Origin: Pigmentiphaga sp.
Lineage (GTDB): Bacteria; Pseudomonadota; Gammaproteobacteria; Burkholderiales; Burkholderiaceae_B
NCBI RefSeq assembly: GCF_033795525.1
Contig: NZ_JARYGM010000001.1
Location: 206,614 to 270,613 of the forward strand
Direction: 5' to 3'
DNA: 64,000 nt
The position numbers and the translations under genes were made by a program. The notes under the pieces were generated by a model. The model saw only the letters and a program-made list of their open reading frames with translations. It had not been told where the DNA came from and searched no databases. This document shows positions 9,317 through 53,801 of the stretch, in pieces (position 1 is the stretch's first letter; each line of letters opens with the position of its first letter).

Positions 9317-9393
<77 letters not shown>

Positions 9394-24911: not shown

Positions 24912-24988
24912 TGGTCGGGGCGGCGGGATTCGAACTCGCGACCCTCTGCTCCCAAAGCAGATGCGCTACCAGGCTGCGCTACGCCCCG
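24912..24988 (-). tRNA. tRNA-Pro (anticodon TGG)
   Basis: The reverse complement is CGGGGCGTAGCGCAGCCTGGTAGCGCATCTGCTTTGGGAGCAGAGGGTCGCGAGTTCGAATCCCGCCGCCCCGACCA. Anticodon loop is TTTGGGA. There is one A:C mismatch in the T stem. Confidence 0.9.
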
Positions 24989-37566: not shown

Positions 37567-37885
37567 GATCGTCTCCTGTGCGGCTGCCGACGCAGCCATA
37601 GCCTTGTTGTGAGGCTATGGTAGGAGGACGGTCTATGCTCGTCCAACACTTAAATTCGCACGATTGAGACCTGATGAGTCTTTATTCTGAACGACTGATA
37701 AGGACCGACGGCAGTACATCGCCCAGTTCCGACATGGCCTCCGCTAATGACAATAGTTAGTGCGCATCGCCGATAGGGAAGGAATTCGAAGCTATTCGCC
37801 TTGATGAGCGACGACCGGCTTTTGCGTGAGCTTAGCGCCTAAGGCAAACTCTGTGCGATGCAAAGCACCGCGAACGGGAGACCCC

Positions 37886-38697
37886 ATGTCCAAGCCACCG
37901 GATCTCGATGCATATTTCGGCCGTATCGGCTATGTCGGCGCCGCTACCCCTACGGCCGACACGCTGCGCAACCTCGTCCTGCACCATGTGCGGACCATCG
38001 CCTTCGAAAGCGTCGACCCTTTCCTGGGCCGGCCGGTCAGCCTGGCACTCGCCGACATCGAGCAGAAACTGGTCCACGGCCGCCGTGGCGGTTACTGCTA
38101 CGAGCACAATGGCTTGTTCGGCGCGGTGCTGCGTGCGCTGGGTTTCAAGGTGACGACGCTGTCGGCGCGAGTCTTGTGGGGGCAGCCAGAAGACGCTACC
38201 GTACCGCGCGCCCACATGCTCTTGAAGGTGGAGCTGGGCGATGCGCCGCTGATCGTGGACGTCGGGTTCGGCGGCCAGACCCCCACGTGCCCGCTAAGGC
38301 TGCACACCGATCTTCCCCAGCCCACGCCCCACGGCCATTGCCGACTGCTGTCCGACGAGCAGGGCTGGCGGCTGCAGGCCGATGTGCGAGGTGAGTGGCG
38401 CACCCTGTACCGGTTCGGCATCGAGCCGGATTTTCCGCCCGATTACGAGATAGCCAATTACTACCTGTCCACGCATCCGGAATCGCCTTTCGTATCGAAC
38501 CTGATCGCAGCACGCGCCACCGCCCAAGGCCGGCTGGCCTGCACAACCGGGACTACACGCGTTACGGCGCGGATGGCAGCGCCGTGCGCCGCAGGCTGGA
38601 AAGCGCCGCAGAGATCAGGGAAGTGCTGCGCCGCGAATTCCTGGTGGAACTGCCGCATACCGCCGAAGGCGACCGTAAACTGGACGCGCTTCCCTAG
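37886..38697 (+). pseudogene. arylamine N-acetyltransferase (NAT), frameshifted
   Basis: DLDAYFGRIGY, RGGYCYEHNGLF (catalytic Cys) and LIVDVGFGG lie in one frame up to ...ATAQGRLA at about 38539. The expected C-terminus LHNRDYTRYGADGS...LVELPH continues in the -1 frame to the TAG at 38695-38697. Confidence 0.75.
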
Positions 38698-38809
38698 GGG
38701 GCAGCGTCGCTCCCACGTCAGCCGGCCTATAATCCTACGATCGGGCGGCAGCACCCTGTGCGCCGAACACGCCGGCGCCACGCCGCCGGCCACTACCATT
38801 CAAGGCCCC

Positions 38810-39196
38810 ATGGAGACCACCCACCGGCTGCGTCGATGTCTCGCCTGGCTGGCGCTTTGCGCCATGTGCCTAGGGGTCTTCGCGCCGGTTGTTTCGCAGT
38901 GGTTGGCGAATGCGCGAACCGTCGTATGGGTCCACATCTGCAGCGAGGCCGGCGCAGCGCCGGTGGCGATCGCCGTATCGCACGGACACTCGCCGAAGGC
39001 CCCGGCCGTTGGGGATGGCTACTGCCCTTATTGCACCCTGGCGCAGCATTGGCCGTTCGCGCCGCCAATGTCCGCCGGCTCGATCCCGCCTCCCCAGGGC
39101 GCTACGCTGGCCTATGCCGGCTCGGCGCTTCCTTCCCCGTCCCTTGCTCCGCGCTGGCACGCGCACGCACCGCGCGCGCCGCCCCTTCTTTCCTGA
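38810..39196 (+). CDS. cruR: DUF2946-family CruR-like copper-responsive upstream ORF
   Basis: N-terminal hydrophobic helix, CPYC at 39023-39034, and a C-terminus ...HAPRAPPLLS* with RAPP at 39173-39184. It precedes a TonB receptor and a PepSY gene. Confidence 0.65.
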   Translation: METTHRLRRCLAWLALCAMCLGVFAPVVSQWLANARTVVWVHICSEAGAAPVAIAVSHGHSPKAPAVGDGYCPYCTLAQHWPFAPPMSAGSIPPPQGATLAYAGSALPSPSLAPRWHAHAPRAPPLLS

Positions 39197-41949: not shown

Positions 41950-43512
41950 ATGCTGACGCGATCGCGTGGCAAGCGCGCCATTTACCTGATCCACCGATGG
42001 ACCGGCATCGCCGCCTGCCTGCTGATGGTGGCTTGGTTCGCCAGCGGCATGGTCATGCTGTTCGTAGGCTACCCCAAGCTCACGCCTTGGGAACGGCTGG
42101 GACACTTGCCCGACCTGCCGGCTGGTCCATGCTGGGCGCCGGTGGAACGGGCGCTGGCCGCAAGCGCCGATCCGGCCGCCGTCACCGAAATCATGCTGAC
42201 AACGGTGCGCGGCCGGCCGACTCTGCGCCTGCGGGAAGGCGACGGCCGCTATCTCGCCGTCGATGCGCGGACGGCCTCGCCCATGCCCCCCGCGGATGCA
42301 GGCGACGCGGTCGAGAGCGCACGCGCCTATCTGCCCGGCGTAGGCGCCCGCTACCTCGGCTCGGTAGACGAGGACCGGTGGACGCATTCAGCCACGCTGA
42401 ATCCCCATCGTCCGCTGCACAAGGTCCAGATGAACGACCCTGCCAGCACGCTACTTTATGTGTCATCGGCCACGGGGGAAGTCGTGCTGGACGCGCCCCG
42501 CGCGCAACGCCTGTGGAACTACGCCGGCGCATGGCTCCATTGGCTCTATATGTTCCGAGACCGGCCCGTCGACCCGGGATGGAGCTGGCTGGTCATCTCG
42601 CTCTCCGCAATGGGGACCATGGTGTCGGTGACCGGCACGGCAGCCGGTCTTTGGCGCTGGCGTTTCCGCGGCACCTACAAGTCGGGCGCCCGCTCGCCTT
42701 ATCGCGACGCTTGGCTGAGATGGCACCACATCGCCGGCCTTGTGTTTGCGGGGATCACCTTTGCGTGGATCTTCAGCGGACTGATGTCGATGAACCCGGC
42801 CGGCCTGTTCCACCCCTCGGGCCTGCGGCCGGACCTCGCCGCCTATCGCGGTGCGACGCCCGGCCAGTCGCGGCCCACGCTGGACCTGACTGAGGTTACC
42901 GCGGCCTTGTGGGAGCAAGGGTTCGAGCCGCGCGAAATCGAATGGCGGGTATTGGGGGGCCGGCCCTACTTGTTGGCCCGCGACGGCGCCGGCCACACCC
43001 GCCTGGTCACCGGCGATGCCGGCGCAATGAGAATTCTTGGACAATGGTCGCCACCCCAGCTGAAATACGCCGCCACGCGCTTGCTTGCCGCGCCCATCGC
43101 CGCCTATCGCCGGCTCGACGACTACGATGCCTACTACTATGGCCGGGAGCCGGAAGCCATGATGGGCGCGAGCGAACGCCGGCTGCCAGTCTGGCGTGCG
43201 CAGTTTGCAGACGCCAGCAAGACCTGGGTCTATCTGGATCCGTATACCGGCGACCCGGCATTGAGCGTGGACGGGCGGCAGCGCCTGGGCCGATGGCTAT
43301 TCAATTTCCTTCACAGCTGGGACCTGCCGCCCATGCTCGCGGCCGGCGTCTGGCGGGAGGCGGTGCTGATCCTGATGAGTCTGGGCGGCCTGGCCTTGAG
43401 CGTGACCGGGACTGTCATCGCGTACCGGCGGGTACGGATGGCGGCGCGCCGCCCTGGGCGGGGCCGGACTAGCCTTGCGGCGCCGCCGGCACGGTATCCA
43501 CCGCCGCAATAA
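41950..43512 (+). CDS. PepSY-associated TM-helix protein (PiuB-like)
   Basis: IYLIHRWTGIAACLLMVAWFASGMVML, repeated HxW motifs (LHWLYMF, LRWHHIAG, NFLHSWD) and four TM segments. Confidence 0.85.
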   Translation: MLTRSRGKRAIYLIHRWTGIAACLLMVAWFASGMVMLFVGYPKLTPWERLGHLPDLPAGPCWAPVERALAASADPAAVTEIMLTTVRGRPTLRLREGDGRYLAVDARTASPMPPADAGDAVESARAYLPGVGARYLGSVDEDRWTHSATLNPHRPLHKVQMNDPASTLLYVSSATGEVVLDAPRAQRLWNYAGAWLHWLYMFRDRPVDPGWSWLVISLSAMGTMVSVTGTAAGLWRWRFRGTYKSGARSPYRDAWLRWHHIAGLVFAGITFAWIFSGLMSMNPAGLFHPSGLRPDLAAYRGATPGQSRPTLDLTEVTAALWEQGFEPREIEWRVLGGRPYLLARDGAGHTRLVTGDAGAMRILGQWSPPQLKYAATRLLAAPIAAYRRLDDYDAYYYGREPEAMMGASERRLPVWRAQFADASKTWVYLDPYTGDPALSVDGRQRLGRWLFNFLHSWDLPPMLAAGVWREAVLILMSLGGLALSVTGTVIAYRRVRMAARRPGRGRTSLAAPPARYPPPQ

Positions 43513-43981
43513 GGCCGTCCTCGGTGTGATGCACCACGAGGATGCGCGCGCTTTCCATCCGGGCCAGCAGTTCGGCCGACACGCCGAAGCCCGTGGCCAA
43601 CCGCTCTGGCTTCATGGGAGCCGGGGCGCTGCGCCGGTCCAGGCCGCGAAAGCGCCGCCAGTTGTACCAGGCCCAGGCGAATAGGATCAGCGCGTTGATG
43701 ACGGCCAGCGCGGCATACACAGCCAAGGTCCGCATCGTCGGGAATGCGCCGGACCAGAACGGCGCGTCCAGCCCCGCCATCCGCCCTTCAACGACTGCGA
43801 TCATGCCGCGCGCGAACAGATAGAGGAACACGATCCACGCGATCGCCGTCAATACGACGTCCAGAAGGTAGCGCAGCCGCGTCCGCTTGGTCGTGATGAC
43901 CATGGTCGAGGCGTCGATCGCCACCCGGGGCTCGCCGGCGGCCGGCGCATCCAGCTTGGTGGGAGGAGGAACGAGACTCAT
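43469..43981 (-). CDS. pgaD: poly-beta-1,6-N-acetylglucosamine biosynthesis protein PgaD
   Basis: Two TM helices plus a WYNWRRF motif. ATGA-coupled to pgaC. The 3' end overlaps the PepSY gene by 44 nt. Confidence 0.8.
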   Translation of the reverse strand: MSLVPPPTKLDAPAAGEPRVAIDASTMVITTKRTRLRYLLDVVLTAIAWIVFLYLFARGMIAVVEGRMAGLDAPFWSGAFPTMRTLAVYAALAVINALILFAWAWYNWRRFRGLDRRSAPAPMKPERLATGFGVSAELLARMESARILVVHHTEDGLIAAVDTVPAAPQG

Positions 43982-45234
43982 GCTTTCTCCAGCGATTTGA
44001 TACCCCGGTCAGGACTGATCCAGCGCGCGCGCCGCCGCCGGATCTTGAGCATGACCTTGGGAAAGCTGACGAGCGATGTGAAGAGGCTGAGCATCCAATA
44101 GGCCAGCGGATACCACACCACCCAGTACAGCGCGCCGGCCAGGCGAGGCTCGTAGCGCCGGTCGATGAAAATACTGAGGGCGAACTGCAGCAGGCATGCC
44201 ATGGCCAGCACCAACCCGGTGAAGGCCGGCGGCATCAAGGTCTCGATGTGGATATGCGGCGGCAACTCGATGAACTTGCCCAGGGCCCACAGGACGATGG
44301 ACATCGCGAACGCGAAGGCCCAGAACGTCGAAAGGCAGAACTCCGCGACCAGCGGCCACAACCGCCGGTGGCGCCACGTCCATATCGAACGCACGTTCTT
44401 GAGGAAGACTTCCGCCCCGCCCTGCGCCCAGCGCAGCCGCTGCTTCCACAACCCGCGCAGGGTCTCAGGCATCAGGATCCAGCACAGCGCCCGGGGCTCG
44501 TAGAAAATGGACCAGTGATCACGCTGCAGTTTCCAGCTGATGTCGATGTCCTCGGTCACCATGTCGAGGCTCCAGTACCCGACGCGGTCCAGTGCCTGCC
44601 GCCGGAACGCCGCCACCACGCCGGACACGGTGAACACCTGTCCGTACACACGCTGGGTCCGCTTGATCAGGCCGATGATGGACGAGAACTCGCCCACCTG
44701 CACGCGCCCGATCAGCGTCGACCGCGTACGCACGCGCGGATTGCCGGTGACCGCGCCGACCCGCGGATGCGCGATCAGCGGATGGACCAGATAGGACACC
44801 GCGTCCGGCGCCAGCACGGCATCCCCGTCTATGCATACCAGGTAGTCGCTGCGGGCCGCCAGCGCGTCCAGCATCGGCGCCGTCCCGTCCTTGGAGCCGT
44901 CATTGATGGCAATGACTTCGAGGTTCGGATAGTTCTGGCCCAATGCCGCCAGTACGGTTTCTTCGCCGTTCTCTTCTTCGTTGAAGCAGGGAATGAGAAT
45001 GGTGACCAGCGGATTGCCCGGCAGCTCGGGCACGGCACCCGGCTCGTCCCAACGCCAGCGCCTCTCCAGGCGCAGCCAGAAGTACAGGCCGCCCGACATC
45101 CACAGCCCCGACATGAACAGCGGGTAGAAGAAGACGAAGTCGAGCAGGAAGTCCCCGGTCACGGCAAGAGCGATACAGAACGGCAGGATCAAGACCGCGG
45201 CCAGGATGAAGGAAGCTAGGATTCGGTCTTTCAT
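43978..45234 (-). CDS. pgaC: PNAG synthase PgaC (GT2), with an internal in-frame gap of about 27 aa
   Basis: [59 protein letters not shown] and QRLRWAQGG. The segment containing the N-x-GKA-x-ALN motif is absent. Confidence 0.9.
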   Translation of the reverse strand: [418 protein letters not shown]

Positions 45235-47243
45235 CGGTAGGGATACCAGGCGTTGGACAACACGGGACGGATGGTCTCCAGGCGCGGCTGATCCTGAGAG
45301 AAATCGTCGGGGTAATAGCCGAAATGGACAGCACCACGGCGCTGCAGGCGCTTCATCCAATCGGCCAGCAATACGGAGTCGATGGGCGCGCCCGCTCCGC
45401 GCCAGTCGCGGCTCTGCAATTCGAAGACGGTCTTGCCGAGCGCGCCAGGGCGCTTGGCGACCTCATCGACCAAGCGATCGAGCCAGGCGCTGGCTTGCGA
45501 GGACGGCACTTCTTCCATGAACGGCATTGCCATGGGCGCAGTCCAGTCGTAGGCGGCGAGGAAATCGTCGAGGTTCTGCGCGAACCACGCTTCGGACTCG
45601 GGATTCAGGATGGGACCGGCGAAGATGTTCCGGGCGGTCAGCACCTGCGGTCCGCGCACCGCCCGCACGCGTGCCGTCAACTCGGCGGTGAAGTCCACGA
45701 GGTAGCGGCTCTTGAAGCGGGTCCATTTCCACAAGGTCGTGGCATCGGCGCGCAAGGCCTCGATCGAGTCCGGTAGGCCCGCAGCACGGTAAGCCGCCAG
45801 CGCCGGCGCGCTCGCATCCTCGTAGTCGGACAGGACGGCGTCGTCGTGGAACAGGATGCCGTCGAACACCGCGTAGCGCGCCAGGTCTTCATACAGTTCG
45901 CCTATCCTGGCCCGCACCTGGGGCGAGAATGGCGACAGCCGGCGGTACTGGTCCGGATCGATGGCGGCGCCTACCTGCGGATTCCATCGCGTCACCCGGG
46001 GCAGAGAGGGATCGAGGTCGAACGAGAGCACCGGCATCCAGGCGAATATCTGCACGTGGGCACGATTGCGCAGTTGCCAGGCCGCTCGGTTGAACAGGTC
46101 GGCCCGCATGGGGAGCACGCGATTGGGGAAGTACACCGATTTCACCAGCCCGTCGCCCACGGGATCGGCGTAGGCCTGCAGGAACACGGCCGAGATCTGC
46201 ATGTCGGCAATGCGTTGCACGAGCGCTCCGAGATTCCGGTCGGTCTGGGCCGGGTCGGGATCGTAGACATAGTCCAGGTCGACATGCGCGACGCGCATCT
46301 TGTCGAGCTCCTGCACGTCGACGATCGCGCTCGCAACGTTGCGCAGCGAGGCTTCTCCGGACAACAGCACGCGCGGGGTCGACATCAGGCGGTCGATGCG
46401 GCCCAGGCCGCTTTCCAGCGTGAGTGCCATGTCGTAGCCGTTATCCCCGACGATCTTCAGCGCCACGCCGCTGGCGGCGCCGTAGGGCCAGACCCACACC
46501 CGGGGCGGCTTGCCCGTCACGCGGCGGATCTTCTCGGTAATGCGCGCCGTGTCGCGGGCCATGCGCTCCTGGTACTGGGCCGGCGATTCGTATTTCGCGG
46601 CTACGGGGTCGTAGACCAACGTGGCCGCCGCAGGCTGTTCGCTGCCCTGCGGGTTGGCCTGCACCCCGTAATGCAGGTTGTCGGTATGGGCGCCGATCTC
46701 GACCACCCCGGAACGCGCAAGCTCGGCGACCTGCTCCCAGGTGAGGAATTTGTCGCGCGGCGCAGGCTGGCCGCCGAAGTTCACCTCCTGATCGGCAGGC
46801 GTATCGATCCAGGCGCCGACGGGCGCGAGCACCGCGGGCCAGCCATAGGCCTTGAGTACGGGAAACACCCGCGTATAAAAGCTGCTGTAGCCGTCATCGA
46901 AGCTCAGCAGGACCGCCCGCGGCGGCAACGGCGTCCCGCCCCGGCGGGCTTCCAGGATCTGGTCCACCGATACCGCGCGGTAGCCGTTCTCGCGCAGCCA
47001 GGCCAGCTGCGCAATGAGTTGGTCGGTACGCACCGACAGGTAGGTCTGGTCGGGCTCGCTGTCCTCGACGTCGTGATAGGCCAGGGTCAGCAGCTGGTTT
47101 TTCGGCCAGGGCTGGTCCGCGGCCGCGACCGGCCGCTCGGCAGGGGGAACGAACAGGGGAATGTCCTTGGCACAACCGGCCAGCACGGCGCAGGCCGTGA
47201 TCAGGAACCAGCCCAGTATCAGGCGGAAACGAATTCTGCACAT
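45231..47243 (-). CDS. pgaB: PNAG N-deacetylase lipoprotein PgaB
   Basis: Lipobox LAGC, LSFDDGYSSFYTRVFPVLKAYGWPAVLAPVG and GAHTDNLHYG. About 670 aa, as in E. coli PgaB. Confidence 0.9.
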   Translation of the reverse strand: MCRIRFRLILGWFLITACAVLAGCAKDIPLFVPPAERPVAAADQPWPKNQLLTLAYHDVEDSEPDQTYLSVRTDQLIAQLAWLRENGYRAVSVDQILEARRGGTPLPPRAVLLSFDDGYSSFYTRVFPVLKAYGWPAVLAPVGAWIDTPADQEVNFGGQPAPRDKFLTWEQVAELARSGVVEIGAHTDNLHYGVQANPQGSEQPAAATLVYDPVAAKYESPAQYQERMARDTARITEKIRRVTGKPPRVWVWPYGAASGVALKIVGDNGYDMALTLESGLGRIDRLMSTPRVLLSGEASLRNVASAIVDVQELDKMRVAHVDLDYVYDPDPAQTDRNLGALVQRIADMQISAVFLQAYADPVGDGLVKSVYFPNRVLPMRADLFNRAAWQLRNRAHVQIFAWMPVLSFDLDPSLPRVTRWNPQVGAAIDPDQYRRLSPFSPQVRARIGELYEDLARYAVFDGILFHDDAVLSDYEDASAPALAAYRAAGLPDSIEALRADATTLWKWTRFKSRYLVDFTAELTARVRAVRGPQVLTARNIFAGPILNPESEAWFAQNLDDFLAAYDWTAPMAMPFMEEVPSSQASAWLDRLVDEVAKRPGALGKTVFELQSRDWRGAGAPIDSVLLADWMKRLQRRGAVHFGYYPDDFSQDQPRLETIRPVLSNAWYPYR

Positions 47244-47254
47244 TGCTGCTTCTC

Positions 47255-49576
47255 TCAGAACCGGAAGATCACGTCGGCGACAATGCGCCATTCGTGTTCG
47301 CGGGTGCCGTCGTAAGGGCGCGTGATGCCCGATACGGTGGCGCCCACCTCGAAGACGTCATTGGTGCGGTAGCGCTGTCCATAGCTGATCAGCCCGACCG
47401 CCCCCGTGCCATAGTCGCGCTGGGTGTAGCTTCCCGCAGCCACGGTGGCCTCCTGTTCCCACACCGTCTCGTAGCGGCGGTGCAGGATATGGGTGACCGT
47501 CACCGACGGCAGGAACACCAGATCGCGGCTAGGGTTGAAGTACGGCGCGTCGGTCCGCGTATTGCGCGATGCCGACAGCTCCAGGCCGAGGTCGACCTTC
47601 AGATGCGGGCGGGTATAAAGACGCTCGCTTCCGGTCAGCGCGGCGGACAACCGGTTATTGCCGTCGCTGAAGCGCGAGGGCGTGAGTGCCAGCGTCCACT
47701 CGCGCCGCTCGCTCTGGCGCCATCGCACATAGCCCTGAAGCGCGTTGGACGAAATGTTGTGGCTCAGGGCGCGCAGCGGCGTATCACGCGAACGCAGGCT
47801 GGCCTCGCCGCCGATCTGCCAGTGGTCGTCGATGTCGTACGCGACCGAGGCACGTGCGCCCTGCTTGGCGCCGAAACCATAGTGGTTGACGGACAGCTCG
47901 GCTTCGGCCGTCAGGTCGCGGCCCCGATACTCGAGGCCGCCCCGCAGCCAGCGCGATGTGCCCCGGCCCTCGATGAACTTGCCGGTGGCATAGCCGCCGC
48001 CGCCGAAGGCGCGCCAGTTGTATTGCAGCGGCGCGGAGTACAGGACCGAGTCGAAGCCATAGCTGCCGCTGCCGGCCACCGGGCTGTCCGATGAGAAGCC
48101 ACGATAGGCCGAGGTTCGCCATTCCGCCTTGTTGTGGACTTGCCAGACACGCGCCAGCCGCTGCGCCCTTAGATTCTCGGGAAAACGCGCCATGGTGTCT
48201 GCGCTGAGCAATTCGGCCTGCCGCCATTCCTGCAGGTCCATCGCGGTGAATCCCTGGCCGGATTCCACGTCCAGGCCCCGCGGCGCCAGCGCCTCGGCCA
48301 GCTTGTATTCCGATTCGGCACGGCGCGGCCATCCGCGGCCCAGGTAGACCGTAGCAAGCGAGGTGCGCAGGCCTGAATTGTCGGGGGCGAGGTCGACCCA
48401 CTCGCTCAGGCGCTTTTCGGCCTCGACGGTATCGTCGCCATAGTAGTAGGCCATGGCGGCCGTCTCGTCGGCCAGCAAGCGCGGATCGTTGGGCAGACGC
48501 TCGGGATTCCCGACCAGGTAGCGCCAAGTCGAGTAGCCGGCCGGCGCACCATCGGCCGATGCCAGCGCGGGGCCAAAGGATTCTTCCTCTATGTGCGCAT
48601 ACAGCAGCCCGGTTTCATTGGCCAGGCGCATTTCCTCGTCCAGCCCCTTGCCGCCGTTCCTGACGAGCCGGTCATAGATTTCGCGGGCCGCTTCCGGACG
48701 CCGCAGGTACAGATAAGCCGAAGCCACGTCACCCAGGGCGTAATCCGGTACCTCCACGCCTTCGGCGCGCAGCGCCTCGTATTCGGCCACGACTTCGCCC
48801 ATGCGGACTCGCGCGTGCAGCGCCTGCAGGCGGTCGATGCGGGCACGCCGCACATCGGCGGCGGCCTCTTCGCCCAGCGCCTGCCAGGCAGGAATCAATT
48901 GCGCGTAACGTGCCAGGGCGCGGTCGGCCACTGCGAACCGTTCCGCTTCGCCACGCGATGGCAGCGACGAAAGGCGCGCCAGTTCCGCGGCTGCGTCGCC
49001 CTCGAGCTGCCGCATCTGCGACTCGTTCAACAACCCCGGGTGCTGCCGCGCCAGGCGCAGCGCCGGTTCGGGCATTGCGGCACGCTGCCAGGAAAGAATG
49101 CGTTCGCGCACGACGTAAGGACGCTGCGGCGCAAGTTCGTAGGCTCTGTCGACTTCGCTCAGGGCTGCATAGGGCCCCTCGGCCCGCAGGTACGCATAGC
49201 CGAGCGCAAGGTGATTGTCAGGGTCGGCCGGATTGCGCTGGACCAGGGCCCGGCCCCGGCGCACCGCTTCCTCGGCCTGGCCCGCGTCGGCCAGCGTCAT
49301 GACCTCGCCCTGTTCGAACGAAGCAACGCCGGGATAGCGCCTCGCCCCTTCGCGAAAAAGATCGAGGGCCGCATCCCAACGCTGCGCATCCCGGTGCGAA
49401 CGTGCCTGCGTCAAGAGCGGCTCGTAGGAGGCCTGCTGGGCATGGACCATGGGAGGAGCGGCCAATAGCAAGGCCAAGGAAACGCTAAGTGCGGCACGCC
49501 GAGGCAGATCAGGAAATCTGCGCGCACGACAGCCCGCCGATACAGCCGCAATGGGCTCGTCGGGTAAGAACGACAT
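47255..49576 (-). CDS. pgaA: PNAG export porin PgaA (TPR plus beta-barrel)
   Basis: Signal peptide ...PPMVHA|QQ, N-terminal TPR-like repeats, a C-terminal barrel ending ...ADVIFRF, and its position upstream of pgaBCD. Confidence 0.85.
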   Translation of the reverse strand: MSFLPDEPIAAVSAGCRARRFPDLPRRAALSVSLALLLAAPPMVHAQQASYEPLLTQARSHRDAQRWDAALDLFREGARRYPGVASFEQGEVMTLADAGQAEEAVRRGRALVQRNPADPDNHLALGYAYLRAEGPYAALSEVDRAYELAPQRPYVVRERILSWQRAAMPEPALRLARQHPGLLNESQMRQLEGDAAAELARLSSLPSRGEAERFAVADRALARYAQLIPAWQALGEEAAADVRRARIDRLQALHARVRMGEVVAEYEALRAEGVEVPDYALGDVASAYLYLRRPEAAREIYDRLVRNGGKGLDEEMRLANETGLLYAHIEEESFGPALASADGAPAGYSTWRYLVGNPERLPNDPRLLADETAAMAYYYGDDTVEAEKRLSEWVDLAPDNSGLRTSLATVYLGRGWPRRAESEYKLAEALAPRGLDVESGQGFTAMDLQEWRQAELLSADTMARFPENLRAQRLARVWQVHNKAEWRTSAYRGFSSDSPVAGSGSYGFDSVLYSAPLQYNWRAFGGGGYATGKFIEGRGTSRWLRGGLEYRGRDLTAEAELSVNHYGFGAKQGARASVAYDIDDHWQIGGEASLRSRDTPLRALSHNISSNALQGYVRWRQSERREWTLALTPSRFSDGNNRLSAALTGSERLYTRPHLKVDLGLELSASRNTRTDAPYFNPSRDLVFLPSVTVTHILHRRYETVWEQEATVAAGSYTQRDYGTGAVGLISYGQRYRTNDVFEVGATVSGITRPYDGTREHEWRIVADVIFRF

Positions 49577-49947: not shown

Positions 49948-50724
49948 TCAGCCGAAACGGCCAGTGATGTAGTCTTCGGTCGCTTTCTTGGTCGGCTTGA
50001 TGAAGATCTCATCGGTCACGCCGAACTCGACCAGCTCGCCCAGGTACATGTACGCCGTGTAGTCCGAGCAACGCGCGGCCTGCTGCATGTTGTGCGTCAC
50101 GATGACGACCGTGTAGTCGTTTTTCAGTTCGGCGATGAGCTCTTCGATCTTGGCGGTGGAGATCGGGTCCAGGGCGGAACACGGTTCATCCAGCAACAGC
50201 ACTTCCGGCTTGATCGCAATGCCCCGCGCAATGCACAGGCGCTGCTGCTGGCCACCGGACAGGCTGTGCCCGCTCTGGTGCAGCTTGGTCTTGACCTCTT
50301 CCCAAAGAGCGGCCTTGGTCAGCGCCCACTCCACCCGTTCATCCATTTCGCCCTTGCTGAGGTTCTCGAACAAGCGCACGCCGAAGGCGATGTTGTCGTA
50401 GATGCTCATCGGGAACGGCGTGGGCTTCTGGAACACCATCCCGACCTTGGCGCGGATCAGCGAGATGTCCATCTTCGAAGCCAGCAGGTTCTCGCCGTCC
50501 ATGTTGATCTGCCCTTCGGCCCGCTGCTCGGGATAGAGCTCGAACATGCGGTTGAACGTACGCAGCAGCGTCGACTTGCCGCAGCCCGATGGCCCGATGA
50601 AGGCCGTGACCTTCTTCTCGGGGATCCTCAGGTTGATATTGCGCAGGGCGTGGAACTTGCCGTAGTAGAAGTTCAGGTTCTTGACTTCCAGCTTGGGGTT
50701 CGAGATCTCGGCGATGTTTTCCAT
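49948..50724 (-). CDS. pstB: phosphate ABC transporter ATP-binding protein PstB
   Basis: [25 protein letters not shown] and [16 protein letters not shown]. Near-universal PstB sequence. Confidence 0.97.
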
Positions 50725-50760
50725 GGCGTATCCGATAGTGTCGCTTCGATGTCCGCGGGC

Positions 50761-51618
50761 TCAGGCGGCCTGCTTGCGGAACATGATTCGGGCAATGATG
50801 TTGATGGCCAGCACGAGCAGCGTGATCAGCGTCGCGCCAGCCCACGCGAGGCGCTGCCAGTCGGCGAACGGGCTCATCGCGAACTGGAAGATCGTGACGG
50901 GCAGGTTGGCCATGGGCGCGTTCATGTCGAACGACAGAAACTGGTTGTTCAGAGCGGTGAACAGCAGCGGCGCCGTTTCGCCCGCGATGCGCGCCACAGC
51001 CAGCAGGATCCCGGTGATGATGCCCGAGCGCGCTGCCCGATAGCACACCATGGTGATCATCTTCCAGTGCGGGCACCCCAGCGCGATGCAGGCTTCGCGC
51101 AGGCTGTTGGGCACGAGTTTGAGCATGTCGTCGGTGGTGCGGACGACGACCGGGATGACGATGACCGCCAGCGCCAGCGTGCCGGCCCAGCCGGAAAAGT
51201 GCTGGATGTGAGCAACGAACACAGTGTAGATGAACAGGCCGATCACGATGGACGGCGCCGACAGCAGCACGTCGTTGATGAAGCGCGTGGCCGGCGCCAG
51301 CCAGCCGCGCTGGCCGTACTCGGCAAGATAGGTCCCGGCCAGGATGCCGATGGGCGTGCCGATCATCGTACCGAGGCCGGCCATCAGGACACTGCCTACC
51401 AGCGCGTTGAGCAGGCCGCCGTCCTGGCCCGGCGGGGGCGTGATCTCGGTAAACAGCGAAAGCGAGATCGCCGCCGCGCCCTTGGACAAGAGCGTCAGGA
51501 TGATCCAGAACAGCCAGAAGAGTCCGAACAGGAGCGCTATGGCCGACAAGGTCAACATCACCTTGTTGACGACGCGGCGCCGCCGGTAGACCGAGTTCTG
51601 CATGGTAATGACGGACAT
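50761..51618 (-). CDS. pstA: phosphate ABC transporter permease PstA
   Basis: Six-TM permease with an EAA-like motif. Third position in the pstSCAB order. Confidence 0.9.
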
Positions 51619-51627
51619 CGCGGCTCC

Positions 51628-52569
51628 TTAGGTCCGTGCGCCTTCGCCCCGGGCCAGACGCAGCAGCAACAGCTTGGAGCAGGCCAGAACGATGGTGGTG
51701 ATAAGGAAGAGGATCAGGCCGAGCTCGATCAGTGCCGACAGGTGGACGTCGTCCGAAGCCTCGGCGAACTCGTTGGCCAGGGCGGAGGCGATCGAGTTGC
51801 CCGGCGCGAACAGCGAACTCGAAAGCCTATAGGCGTTGCCGATGACGAAGGTCACCGCCATGGTCTCGCCCAGTGCGCGCCCCAGGCCAAGCATGATGCC
51901 GCCGACCACGCCGACCTTGGTGAAGGGCAGCACGACGCGGGAGACCACCTCCCAGGTGGTCGCGCCGAGCCCGTAGGCCGACTCCTTCAGCAAGGCCGGC
52001 ACCAGCTCGAACACGTCGCGCATGACCGCGGTGATGAACGGGATGATCATGACGGCCAGGATGATGCCGGCGGTGAAGACACCGATACCGAAGGCCGGCC
52101 CCTGGAACAGGATGCCGGCACCCGGGATGTTGCCCAGCGTGGCGATCAGTGCGGGCTGCACGTATTGCTGGAACAGCGGGGCGAAAACGAACAGCCCCCA
52201 CATGCCGTAGATGATGGATGGGATCGCAGCCAGCATTTCGATGGCGGTCCCCAGCGGGCGGCGCAGCCATGCAGGCGACAGTTCTGTCAGGAACAAGGCG
52301 ATACCGAACGAGACCGGCACCGCGATCAAAAGCGCGATGGCCGAGGTGATCAGCGTGCCGATGATGGGCACCAGCGCGCCGTATTCATTGTTGACCGGGT
52401 CCCATTCCGAGGACCACAGGAAAGACAGGCCATACTTTTCGAGCGTGATCTGGCTGCCCAGCACCAGCGATACCAGGATCGCGGCCAGCAGGCTCAGCAC
52501 GGCAAAGGCAAAGAACCGCGTCAGGTTCTTGAACAACGCGTCCATGGCCGCGTTACGGTTTTTTTTCAT
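51628..52569 (-). CDS. pstC: phosphate ABC transporter permease PstC
   Basis: Permease with [18 protein letters not shown]. Second position in the operon. Trimmed to ATG 52569. Confidence 0.9.
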
Positions 52570-52702
52570 CGGGGGCGTATTCCCGGTAACAAGGGGATCA
52601 GAGGACGGATTTCCTCGGCGTACGCCCGAAATGTTATCAAGTACCGCGCTCATGGGTATTTCCGGAAGAGAGGGACGGGTCGGAAAGAGGGCCTGGAGAC
52701 GC

Positions 52703-52737
52703 GAAAAACGGGGCGGACGTTACTCGCCCGGCCCCGC
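52703..52737 (-). terminator. intra-operon hairpin plus U5 after pstS (attenuator)
   Basis: The minus strand reads GCGGGGCCGGGCGAGTAACGTCCGCCCCGTTTTTCGC, 24 nt beyond the pstS stop. Confidence 0.5.
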
Positions 52738-52760
52738 TTCCGGTAGCGATGCCTAGGTGC

Positions 52761-53801
52761 TTAGTACACAGCCTTGCCGCTGGCGTCCTTGATGTCGGAC
52801 TTCCACAGCGCGCGGATCTGGGTGGTCACTTCGTCGGGCAGGGCGACGTAGTCCAGCTCGGAAGCCGACTTCTTGCCGTTCTTGAACGCCCAGTCGAAGA
52901 ACTTCAGCACTTCGGCGCCTTGTTGCGGCTTGTCCTGGACTTTGTGCATCAGGATGAAGGTGGCGCTGGTGATGGGCCAGCTCTTCTCGCCCGGCTCGTC
53001 GTTCAGGATCACGCCCATGCCAGGCGCGCTCTTCCAGTCGGCGTTGGCGGCCGCCGCGGCGAAGGCAGCTTCCTCGGGCTGGACGAACTTGCCGGCCTTG
53101 TTCTGCACCTGGCCGTGCGACAGCTTGTTCTGCTTGGCGTAGGCGTACTCGACGTAGCCGATGGCGCCAGCGAACTGCTTGACGTAGTTGGCCACGCCTT
53201 CGTTGCCCTTGCCGCCCTGGCCGGTGGGCCACTTCACAGCCTTGCCTTCGCCAACCGTGGACTTCCACTCGGGGGAAACCTTGGACAGGTAGTTGGTCCA
53301 GCCGAAGGTCGTGCCCGAGCCGTCCGAACGATGGACGACGATGATGTCGGTCGACGGCAGCGTCACGCCGGGGTTCAGCTTGGCGATGGCTTCATCGTTC
53401 CACTTCTTGACCTTGCCCAGGAAGATGTCGGCCAGCAGGGGGCCGGTGAACTTGAGCTGGCCGGGCTGCACGCCCTGCAGGTTGACCACGGGCACGATGC
53501 CGCCGATCACGGCCGGGAACTGCACCAGGCCGTTCTTGGCCAGGTCGTCGCCGCCCATGGGGTCGTCCGAGGCGCCGAAGTCGACGGTCTTGGCGATGAT
53601 CTGCTTCTGGCCGCCGCCCGACCCGATGGATTGGTAGTTCACGGTGTTGCCGGTAGCGGCCTTGTAGTCGGAAGCCCACTTGGCGTAGATGGGATAGGGG
53701 AAGGAAGCGCCTGCCCCGGTGATGTCGGCGGCGTGCGCGGATAGCGCAGCTACGCCCAGCACGACGCCAACCGAAACTTGCTTGAATACGGATTTCAACA
53801 T
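52761..53801 (-). CDS. pstS: periplasmic phosphate-binding protein PstS
   Basis: Signal peptide, ITGAGASFPYPIYAKWA, YQSIGSGGG, RSDGSGTT and GAIGYVEYAYA. Confidence 0.95.
   Translation of the reverse strand: MLKSVFKQVSVGVVLGVAALSAHAADITGAGASFPYPIYAKWASDYKAATGNTVNYQSIGSGGGQKQIIAKTVDFGASDDPMGGDDLAKNGLVQFPAVIGGIVPVVNLQGVQPGQLKFTGPLLADIFLGKVKKWNDEAIAKLNPGVTLPSTDIIVVHRSDGSGTTFGWTNYLSKVSPEWKSTVGEGKAVKWPTGQGGKGNEGVANYVKQFAGAIGYVEYAYAKQNKLSHGQVQNKAGKFVQPEEAAFAAAAANADWKSAPGMGVILNDEPGEKSWPITSATFILMHKVQDKPQQGAEVLKFFDWAFKNGKKSASELDYVALPDEVTTQIRALWKSDIKDASGKAVY

Follow-up and report, generated by a model that had tools for sequence, protein, structure and literature searches.

An 81-bp in-frame deletion in the PNAG synthase gene pgaC of an otherwise intact pgaABCD operon

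PNAG, a sugar polymer of biofilms, is made from UDP-GlcNAc as β-1,6-GlcNAc by synthases that depend on c-di-GMP and PgaD. The PNAG synthases PgaC, BpsC, HmsR and IcaA are described by the model TIGR03937. In these proteins the operon order, the ATGA overlaps between genes, the motifs NDGS, DxD, TED and QRLRW and the layout of the transmembrane (TM) helices are the same as in the locus presented here. Every other member, however, has residues 124-150 with the invariant pattern L-x-x-x-H-L-x-x-N-Q-G-K-A...G, and the PgaC of this locus does not. The GT-A fold and the motif set are furthermore held in common with BcsA (4HG6/4P00), poplar CesA8 and the Chlorella virus and Xenopus HAS. In those synthases the loop after strand β3 forms the uridine pocket, as KAG in BcsA and CesA and as H-x-G-K in HAS, whereas both this loop and the strand are missing in the short PgaC.

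The part played by the loop is best described for two of these enzymes. In poplar CesA8 the substrate's uridine sits between Glu265 on one side and Lys436 on the other, and the diphosphate is held by the metal at DxD together with the Arg of QxxRW (PMC9934533). In the Chlorella virus enzyme (CvHAS) Tyr91, His174 and Lys177 surround the uracil, Lys177 forms a salt bridge with Asp201 of DxD, and the mutant H174A, which has no folding defect, shows essentially no activity (PMC12987647). No experimental structure of PgaC was found in the PDB copy searched or in papers. The full-length PgaC profile aligns to processive GT2 structures from β1 to QxxRW, and places NQGKAMAL of PgaC on RRGKAHAL of PcManGT, while the HMMER alignment of BcsA is offset by 2 residues in this loop. 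From K143 of PgaC to D163, with which its DxD begins, the distance is 20 residues; for the His/Lys of CesA8 and CvHAS it is 24 residues, and we take Lys226 of BcsA to be 20 residues before Asp246. Going by motif and spacing, not by superposition, K143 would be equivalent to the lysine of BcsA, CesA8 and CvHAS.

The window, i.e. the whole 64-kb stretch of DNA that was analysed, holds a complete pgaABCD operon on the minus strand (43469-49576). All four products score above the curated NCBIfam PGA cut-offs, for which one TIGR model was used for each Pga protein, as well as NF011177 for PgaB.

47255..49576, minus strand: pgaA, PNAG export porin, 773 aa, apparently intact (TIGR03939, 713.9 bits, cut-off 366.65)
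45231..47243, minus strand: pgaB, PNAG N-deacetylase/hydrolase, 670 aa, apparently intact (NF011177, 1072 bits, cut-off 923)
43978..45234, minus strand: pgaC, PNAG synthase, short allele of 418 aa (TIGR03937, 558.9 bits, cut-off 422.3, matched in two stretches)
43469..43981, minus strand: pgaD, 170 aa, intact (TIGR03940, 83.7 bits, cut-off 31.45)

The gene order pgaA-B-C-D matches that of E. coli K-12 and of 80 related loci, and the pgaB/pgaC and pgaC/pgaD junctions are both overlapping ATGA stop-start pairs. The 670 aa of PgaB are counted from the called start, also in the public assembly; a longer ORF begins at 47291. At 170 aa, PgaD is longer than in E. coli (137 aa) and shorter than in the nearest relative (195 aa), and it is the most divergent product of the operon (51% identity, dN/dS 0.30). 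Over 44 nt (43469-43512 of the window), pgaD and a convergent PepSY-TM gene on the plus strand (41950-43512) overlap at their 3' ends.

The original prediction was that pgaC carries an in-frame deletion of about 27 residues between the NDGS and DxD motifs. The gene lacks exactly 27 codons when compared with 11 relatives, with the 119 nearest protein clusters and with 79 species genomes, and the gap in the DNA alignment is exactly 81 bp. The translation first written for the junction agrees with the minus strand at 44821-44904. The junction and the motifs that were kept are located as follows.

44893..44904, minus strand: NDGS motif, N111-S114, at the end of strand β2, kept (D112, G113 and S114 invariant)
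44851..44865, minus strand: deletion junction zone, codons A124-R128, GCGCTGGCGGCCCGC, 'ALAAR', with 81 bp gone according to alignments with relatives
44821..44829, minus strand: DxD motif, D136-G-D138, kept (alignment with 119 relatives)
44548..44556, minus strand: TED motif, T227-E228-D229, kept (alignment with 119 relatives)
44428..44442, minus strand: QRLRW motif, Q265-W269, kept (alignment with 119 relatives)

The residues of the NDGS Asp, DxD, TED and QxxRW are all present; each of their columns is either invariant or conserved to 90% or more. DGD, TED, QRLRW and the TM helices had been described as intact, and both the alignments and the AF2 model bear this out. Equally, annotation pipelines had been expected to call the gene intact, and it does pass the TIGR03937 cut-off and stands as an ordinary CDS in the public assembly, although the match to the model is split in two stretches because of the gap. 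The HMM score, the pgaA/B/D context, the catalytic motifs and the membrane topology are those of a PgaC/IcaA synthase; β3 and the N-Q-G-K-A loop of the nucleotide pocket, which such a synthase has, are deleted. Judged from its sequence, the short pgaC is PgaC by descent, and not demonstrably a working member of the family.

The gap is the only internal one in the protein alignment with the 11 relatives and is found in the PgaC of the window alone. The 27 residues are present in 119 of the 119 nearest protein clusters, in 79 of the 79 species genomes and also in PgaC of E. coli K-12. For the latter the extra residues had been given correctly, as the RefSeq record shows, and the lengths of 418 aa here and 441 aa in E. 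coli were correct as well. Every relative compared has a PgaC of 441-456 aa, and the short protein is the only one of 418 aa among 120 clusters. In Bordetella PgaC numbering, which is used below for the lost part, the deleted span covers residues 124-150. Nine of its 27 columns (L132, H136, L137, N140, Q141, G142, K143, A144 and G150) are 100% invariant in the 119 clusters, and 12 of the 27, including N-Q-G-K-A, in the 79 genomes. A search with an 81-aa peptide centred on the junction returned 18 short fragment proteins and nothing else, and the uniqueness of the short form therefore rests on the 119 clusters and the 79 genomes. Within the 64-kb window, neither the missing segment at another position nor a second pgaC was found.

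Over aligned positions the PgaC of the window is 82% identical to its nearest relative, which comes from a metagenome, 78% to Bordetella and 56% to E. coli K-12. The nearest related pga operon encodes a full-length PgaC of 445 aa and has the same pgaB-C-D overlaps. It is known solely from short Logan metagenome contigs (L083-L086; SRR35086762-64, SRR18352857).

The consequences for the fold were read from AF2 models. In the model of full-length Bordetella PgaC the region consists of β1 (77-83), α1 (90-98), β2 (105-111), α2 (118-128), β3 (132-136), α3 (143-153) and β4 (158-162), followed by DxD, with a pLDDT of 91-97 through this region and of 92-97 across residues 101-160. Mapped onto this model, the gap takes away β3 and the N-Q-G-K loop together with the latter half of α2 and most of α3, i.e. 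one predicted β-α unit, and the cuts fall in phase within two successive helices. In the model of the short PgaC, β2 (105-111) is followed by a connector that is mostly coil and then by β4 (131-135), with a pLDDT of about 70 there; the mean pLDDT is 72.9 for this model versus 79.1 for the full-length one. The complete Rossmann-like half of a GT-A family 2 protein (β1-α1-β2-α2-β3-α3-β4) is accordingly absent from the predicted structure. The top Foldseek matches of the short model are PcManGT, BcsA and HAS, and its TM helices (2-24, 27-55, 259-284, 287-319, 337-358 and 365-395) are laid out as in the full-length model. β3 is an edge strand of the GT-A fold, and the domain might therefore still fold.

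The loop that is lost had been named as an N-x-GKA-x-ALN element in contact with the UDP diphosphate. Its removal and its invariance both hold, but the contact has to be revised, since the papers put the lysine at the uridine/uracil pocket and at the first Asp of DxD. A similar adjustment concerns the junction, placed originally between 44851 and 44850. This position does adjoin ALAAR, but since ALAAR agrees with the flank on either side, any position in 44851-44865 may be the junction, and the one given is the 3' limit of that zone.

The original prediction had further pointed to a flanking A-A-(R/K) repeat, and in the relatives a short direct repeat does bound the lost segment. Full-length proteins have an (A/R/T)-L-A-A-(R) motif at both of its ends, exactly 81 nt apart, and at the DNA level the repeat core is CTGGCSGCC. 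The exact microhomology at the 81-nt offset in relatives ranges from 2 to 13 nt (median 5). In two Cupriavidus genomes (L036 and L041) ALAAR stands on both sides (LLD-ALAAR-H ... RMG-ALAAR-G), and removal of the sequence between these repeats would yield the junction peptide of the window. The pattern looks like the signature of slippage or of short-homology recombination between direct repeats. By such a slipped-strand or short-homology event between the two coding repeats, which lie in helices α2 and α3, the rest of α2, the edge strand β3, the N-Q-G-K-A loop and most of α3 were most likely excised as one β-α unit, leaving a hybrid connector between β2 and β4. With other in-frame alleles produced by deletion between short direct repeats the allele shares a length that is an exact multiple of three, a junction inside the repeat and an unaffected annotation. 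It differs from such cryptic pseudogenes in that we infer the loss of function, and in that no intact sister strain was found by which to date the event.

We consider it likely that the short pgaC is a recent, repeat-mediated, in-frame loss-of-function allele which annotation treats as intact. The lost loop would supply one wall of the uracil pocket and the lysine that pairs with the first Asp of DxD. Because of this loss the short PgaC is probably unable to bind or position UDP-GlcNAc properly, and the operon would no longer make PNAG. The event would be a recent one, since neither the gene nor the operon has decayed otherwise. This is in line with the earlier view of the synthase as probably dead or altered, in a gene of which the rest is free of decay. 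If the allele is dead, the organism is without PNAG despite a perfect annotated pgaABCD operon, and the case illustrates how pseudogene detection misses in-frame deletions, so that too many traits are predicted from genomes and MAGs. The short pgaC also lends itself, as a deletion made by nature, to testing if a processive GT2 synthase can do without the β3/N-x-G-K unit. In other respects it is an ordinary kind of event, a mutation of a well-known gene in one strain.

The age of the deletion and the state of the protein were approached through the conservation of the remaining sequence. Outside the gap, PgaC has no deviation at the 168 columns that are at least 95% conserved in the 119 clusters, and none at the 190 such columns in the 79 genomes; in the PgaC of relatives the mean is 1.4-1.5 deviations and the maximum 8-12. 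Against the operon of the nearest relative dN/dS is 0.108 for pgaC, 0.165 for pgaB and 0.30 for pgaD, at a dS of about 1. Assuming about 2.25 nonsynonymous sites per codon and 190 conserved codons, the absence of changes limits a period of neutral drift to at most about 0.007 substitutions per site (95% bound), which is less than 2% of the branch of this lineage. The lack of decay outside the deletion fits equally with a very recent event and with a protein on which selection still acts.

pgaA, pgaB and pgaD had been described as normal, and apart from passing the model cut-offs, their deviations are inside the range of the relatives. At conserved columns the counts are unremarkable for PgaA (2 deviations in 121) and PgaD (1 in 22). 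In PgaB, 4-6 unusual substitutions fall at columns at least 95-97% conserved in 75 relatives, which is in the upper fifth of, and still within, their range. These include L180V, P298A, F303V and T352A (window numbering), and presumably, going by the E. coli positions, none of the positions is a known catalytic Asp or His. The PgaB substitutions could point, if faintly, to relaxed constraint on the operon, or they could be noise.

The same conservation is what would be expected if the short PgaC were still functional and kept by selection, be it as a weaker or altered synthase or as a non-catalytic partner in PgaD assembly, c-di-GMP binding or the channel. The remaining catalytic motifs and the TM helices are intact, as is the translationally coupled operon, the β-α unit was removed whole and in phase, and the model keeps its GT-A-like matches. 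We nevertheless find this unlikely, as none of the 119 clusters and 79 genomes has another short form, the loop that is lost does not vary in the family, and in CvHAS the single change H174A in the equivalent loop nearly abolishes activity (PMC12987647); a very recent loss would moreover give the same lack of decay. Less likely again is the more specific case of a foldable, membrane-inserted PgaC under selection, acting either as a synthase without the canonical uracil-pocket loop or as a non-catalytic subunit for PgaD or c-di-GMP binding or for the channel. If this were true, the short PgaC would be a natural minimal GT-A variant.

Whether the sequence is genuine was evaluated on two assemblies. 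Over 7257 nt the window does not differ from the public NCBI assembly GCA_034285035.1. An independently assembled Logan contig of 25,147 bp, with a word depth of about 70, spans 44000-45700 with 0 differences and 0 gaps. It comes from the single run with the window sequence, here run X1, which is labelled as soil metagenome; other runs share at most 7% of words with the window sequence. The allele is therefore known from one sample. In run X1 no other contig of at least 95% identity was found, and none of the loose ends listed is at the junction, as far as contigs, which drop rare variants, can tell. With at most about 15 nt, the flanking repeat is not long enough for an assembly to collapse on it. 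Run X1 may, speculatively, be an enrichment culture, given its high depth and its long contigs, and if so, a recent loss of exopolysaccharide would be unsurprising.

These data confirm that the deletion is neither chance nor an assembler collapse. It is accordingly quite improbable that 81 bp were dropped through an artefact of assembly or consensus, or from a mixed population, and that the organism really or mostly has a full-length pgaC. The three contigs with the short PgaC may all come from one sample, and Logan contigs would not show a rare variant. Against this, two different assemblers gave the identical sequence, the repeat is far below assembly k-mer sizes, the depth is flat, and run X1 has no similar contig with an insertion at the junction. 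An artefact is furthermore not expected to amount to exactly 81 bp, in frame and between homologous repeats.

Nothing was found in favour of a short form that is ancestral or normal for the lineage, with an insertion gained by all other PgaC proteins. The segment is present in the 79 genomes; Alcaligenaceae, Cupriavidus, Comamonas, Pseudomonas, Yersinia, Erwinia and E. coli all have it, and it aligns to β3-loop-α3 of GT2 structures as distant as PcManGT, the synthases of chondroitin and heparosan, and BcsA. This refutes the idea, and we give it practically no chance.

The operon is flanked on one side by genes for a TonB-dependent siderophore receptor and a PepSY protein, and on the other side by pstSCAB, ppk, ppx, glmM, folP and ftsH. 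The GC content of the pga region is about 65-67%, no different from the rest of the window, and the region was therefore rejected as a foreign island; its surroundings are ordinary chromosome. The closest polyphosphate kinases, from Achromobacter and Bordetella, are only 72-75% identical. Together with the identities of PgaC this makes the host a member of the Alcaligenaceae to which no sequenced genome in the collections is close. The pstSCAB genes beside the operon (49948-53801, minus strand) have a GC3 of 0.85-0.91, compared with 0.74-0.85 in neighbouring genes, and their GC at first and second positions is below that of the neighbours, a pattern that fits the strong codon bias of highly expressed genes.

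Further away, an ORF of 456 aa on the plus strand (37826-39196) is matched by the N-hydroxyarylamine O-acetyltransferase (NAT) model over residues 27-236 only, with 184 bits and a cut-off of 493. About 220 C-terminal residues are outside the match, and the ORF may have been called too long, or it may be a fusion or a diverged NAT. Three tRNA genes on the minus strand (2203-2275, 9320-9393 and 24915-24988) are the sole Rfam matches at the gathering threshold in the window.
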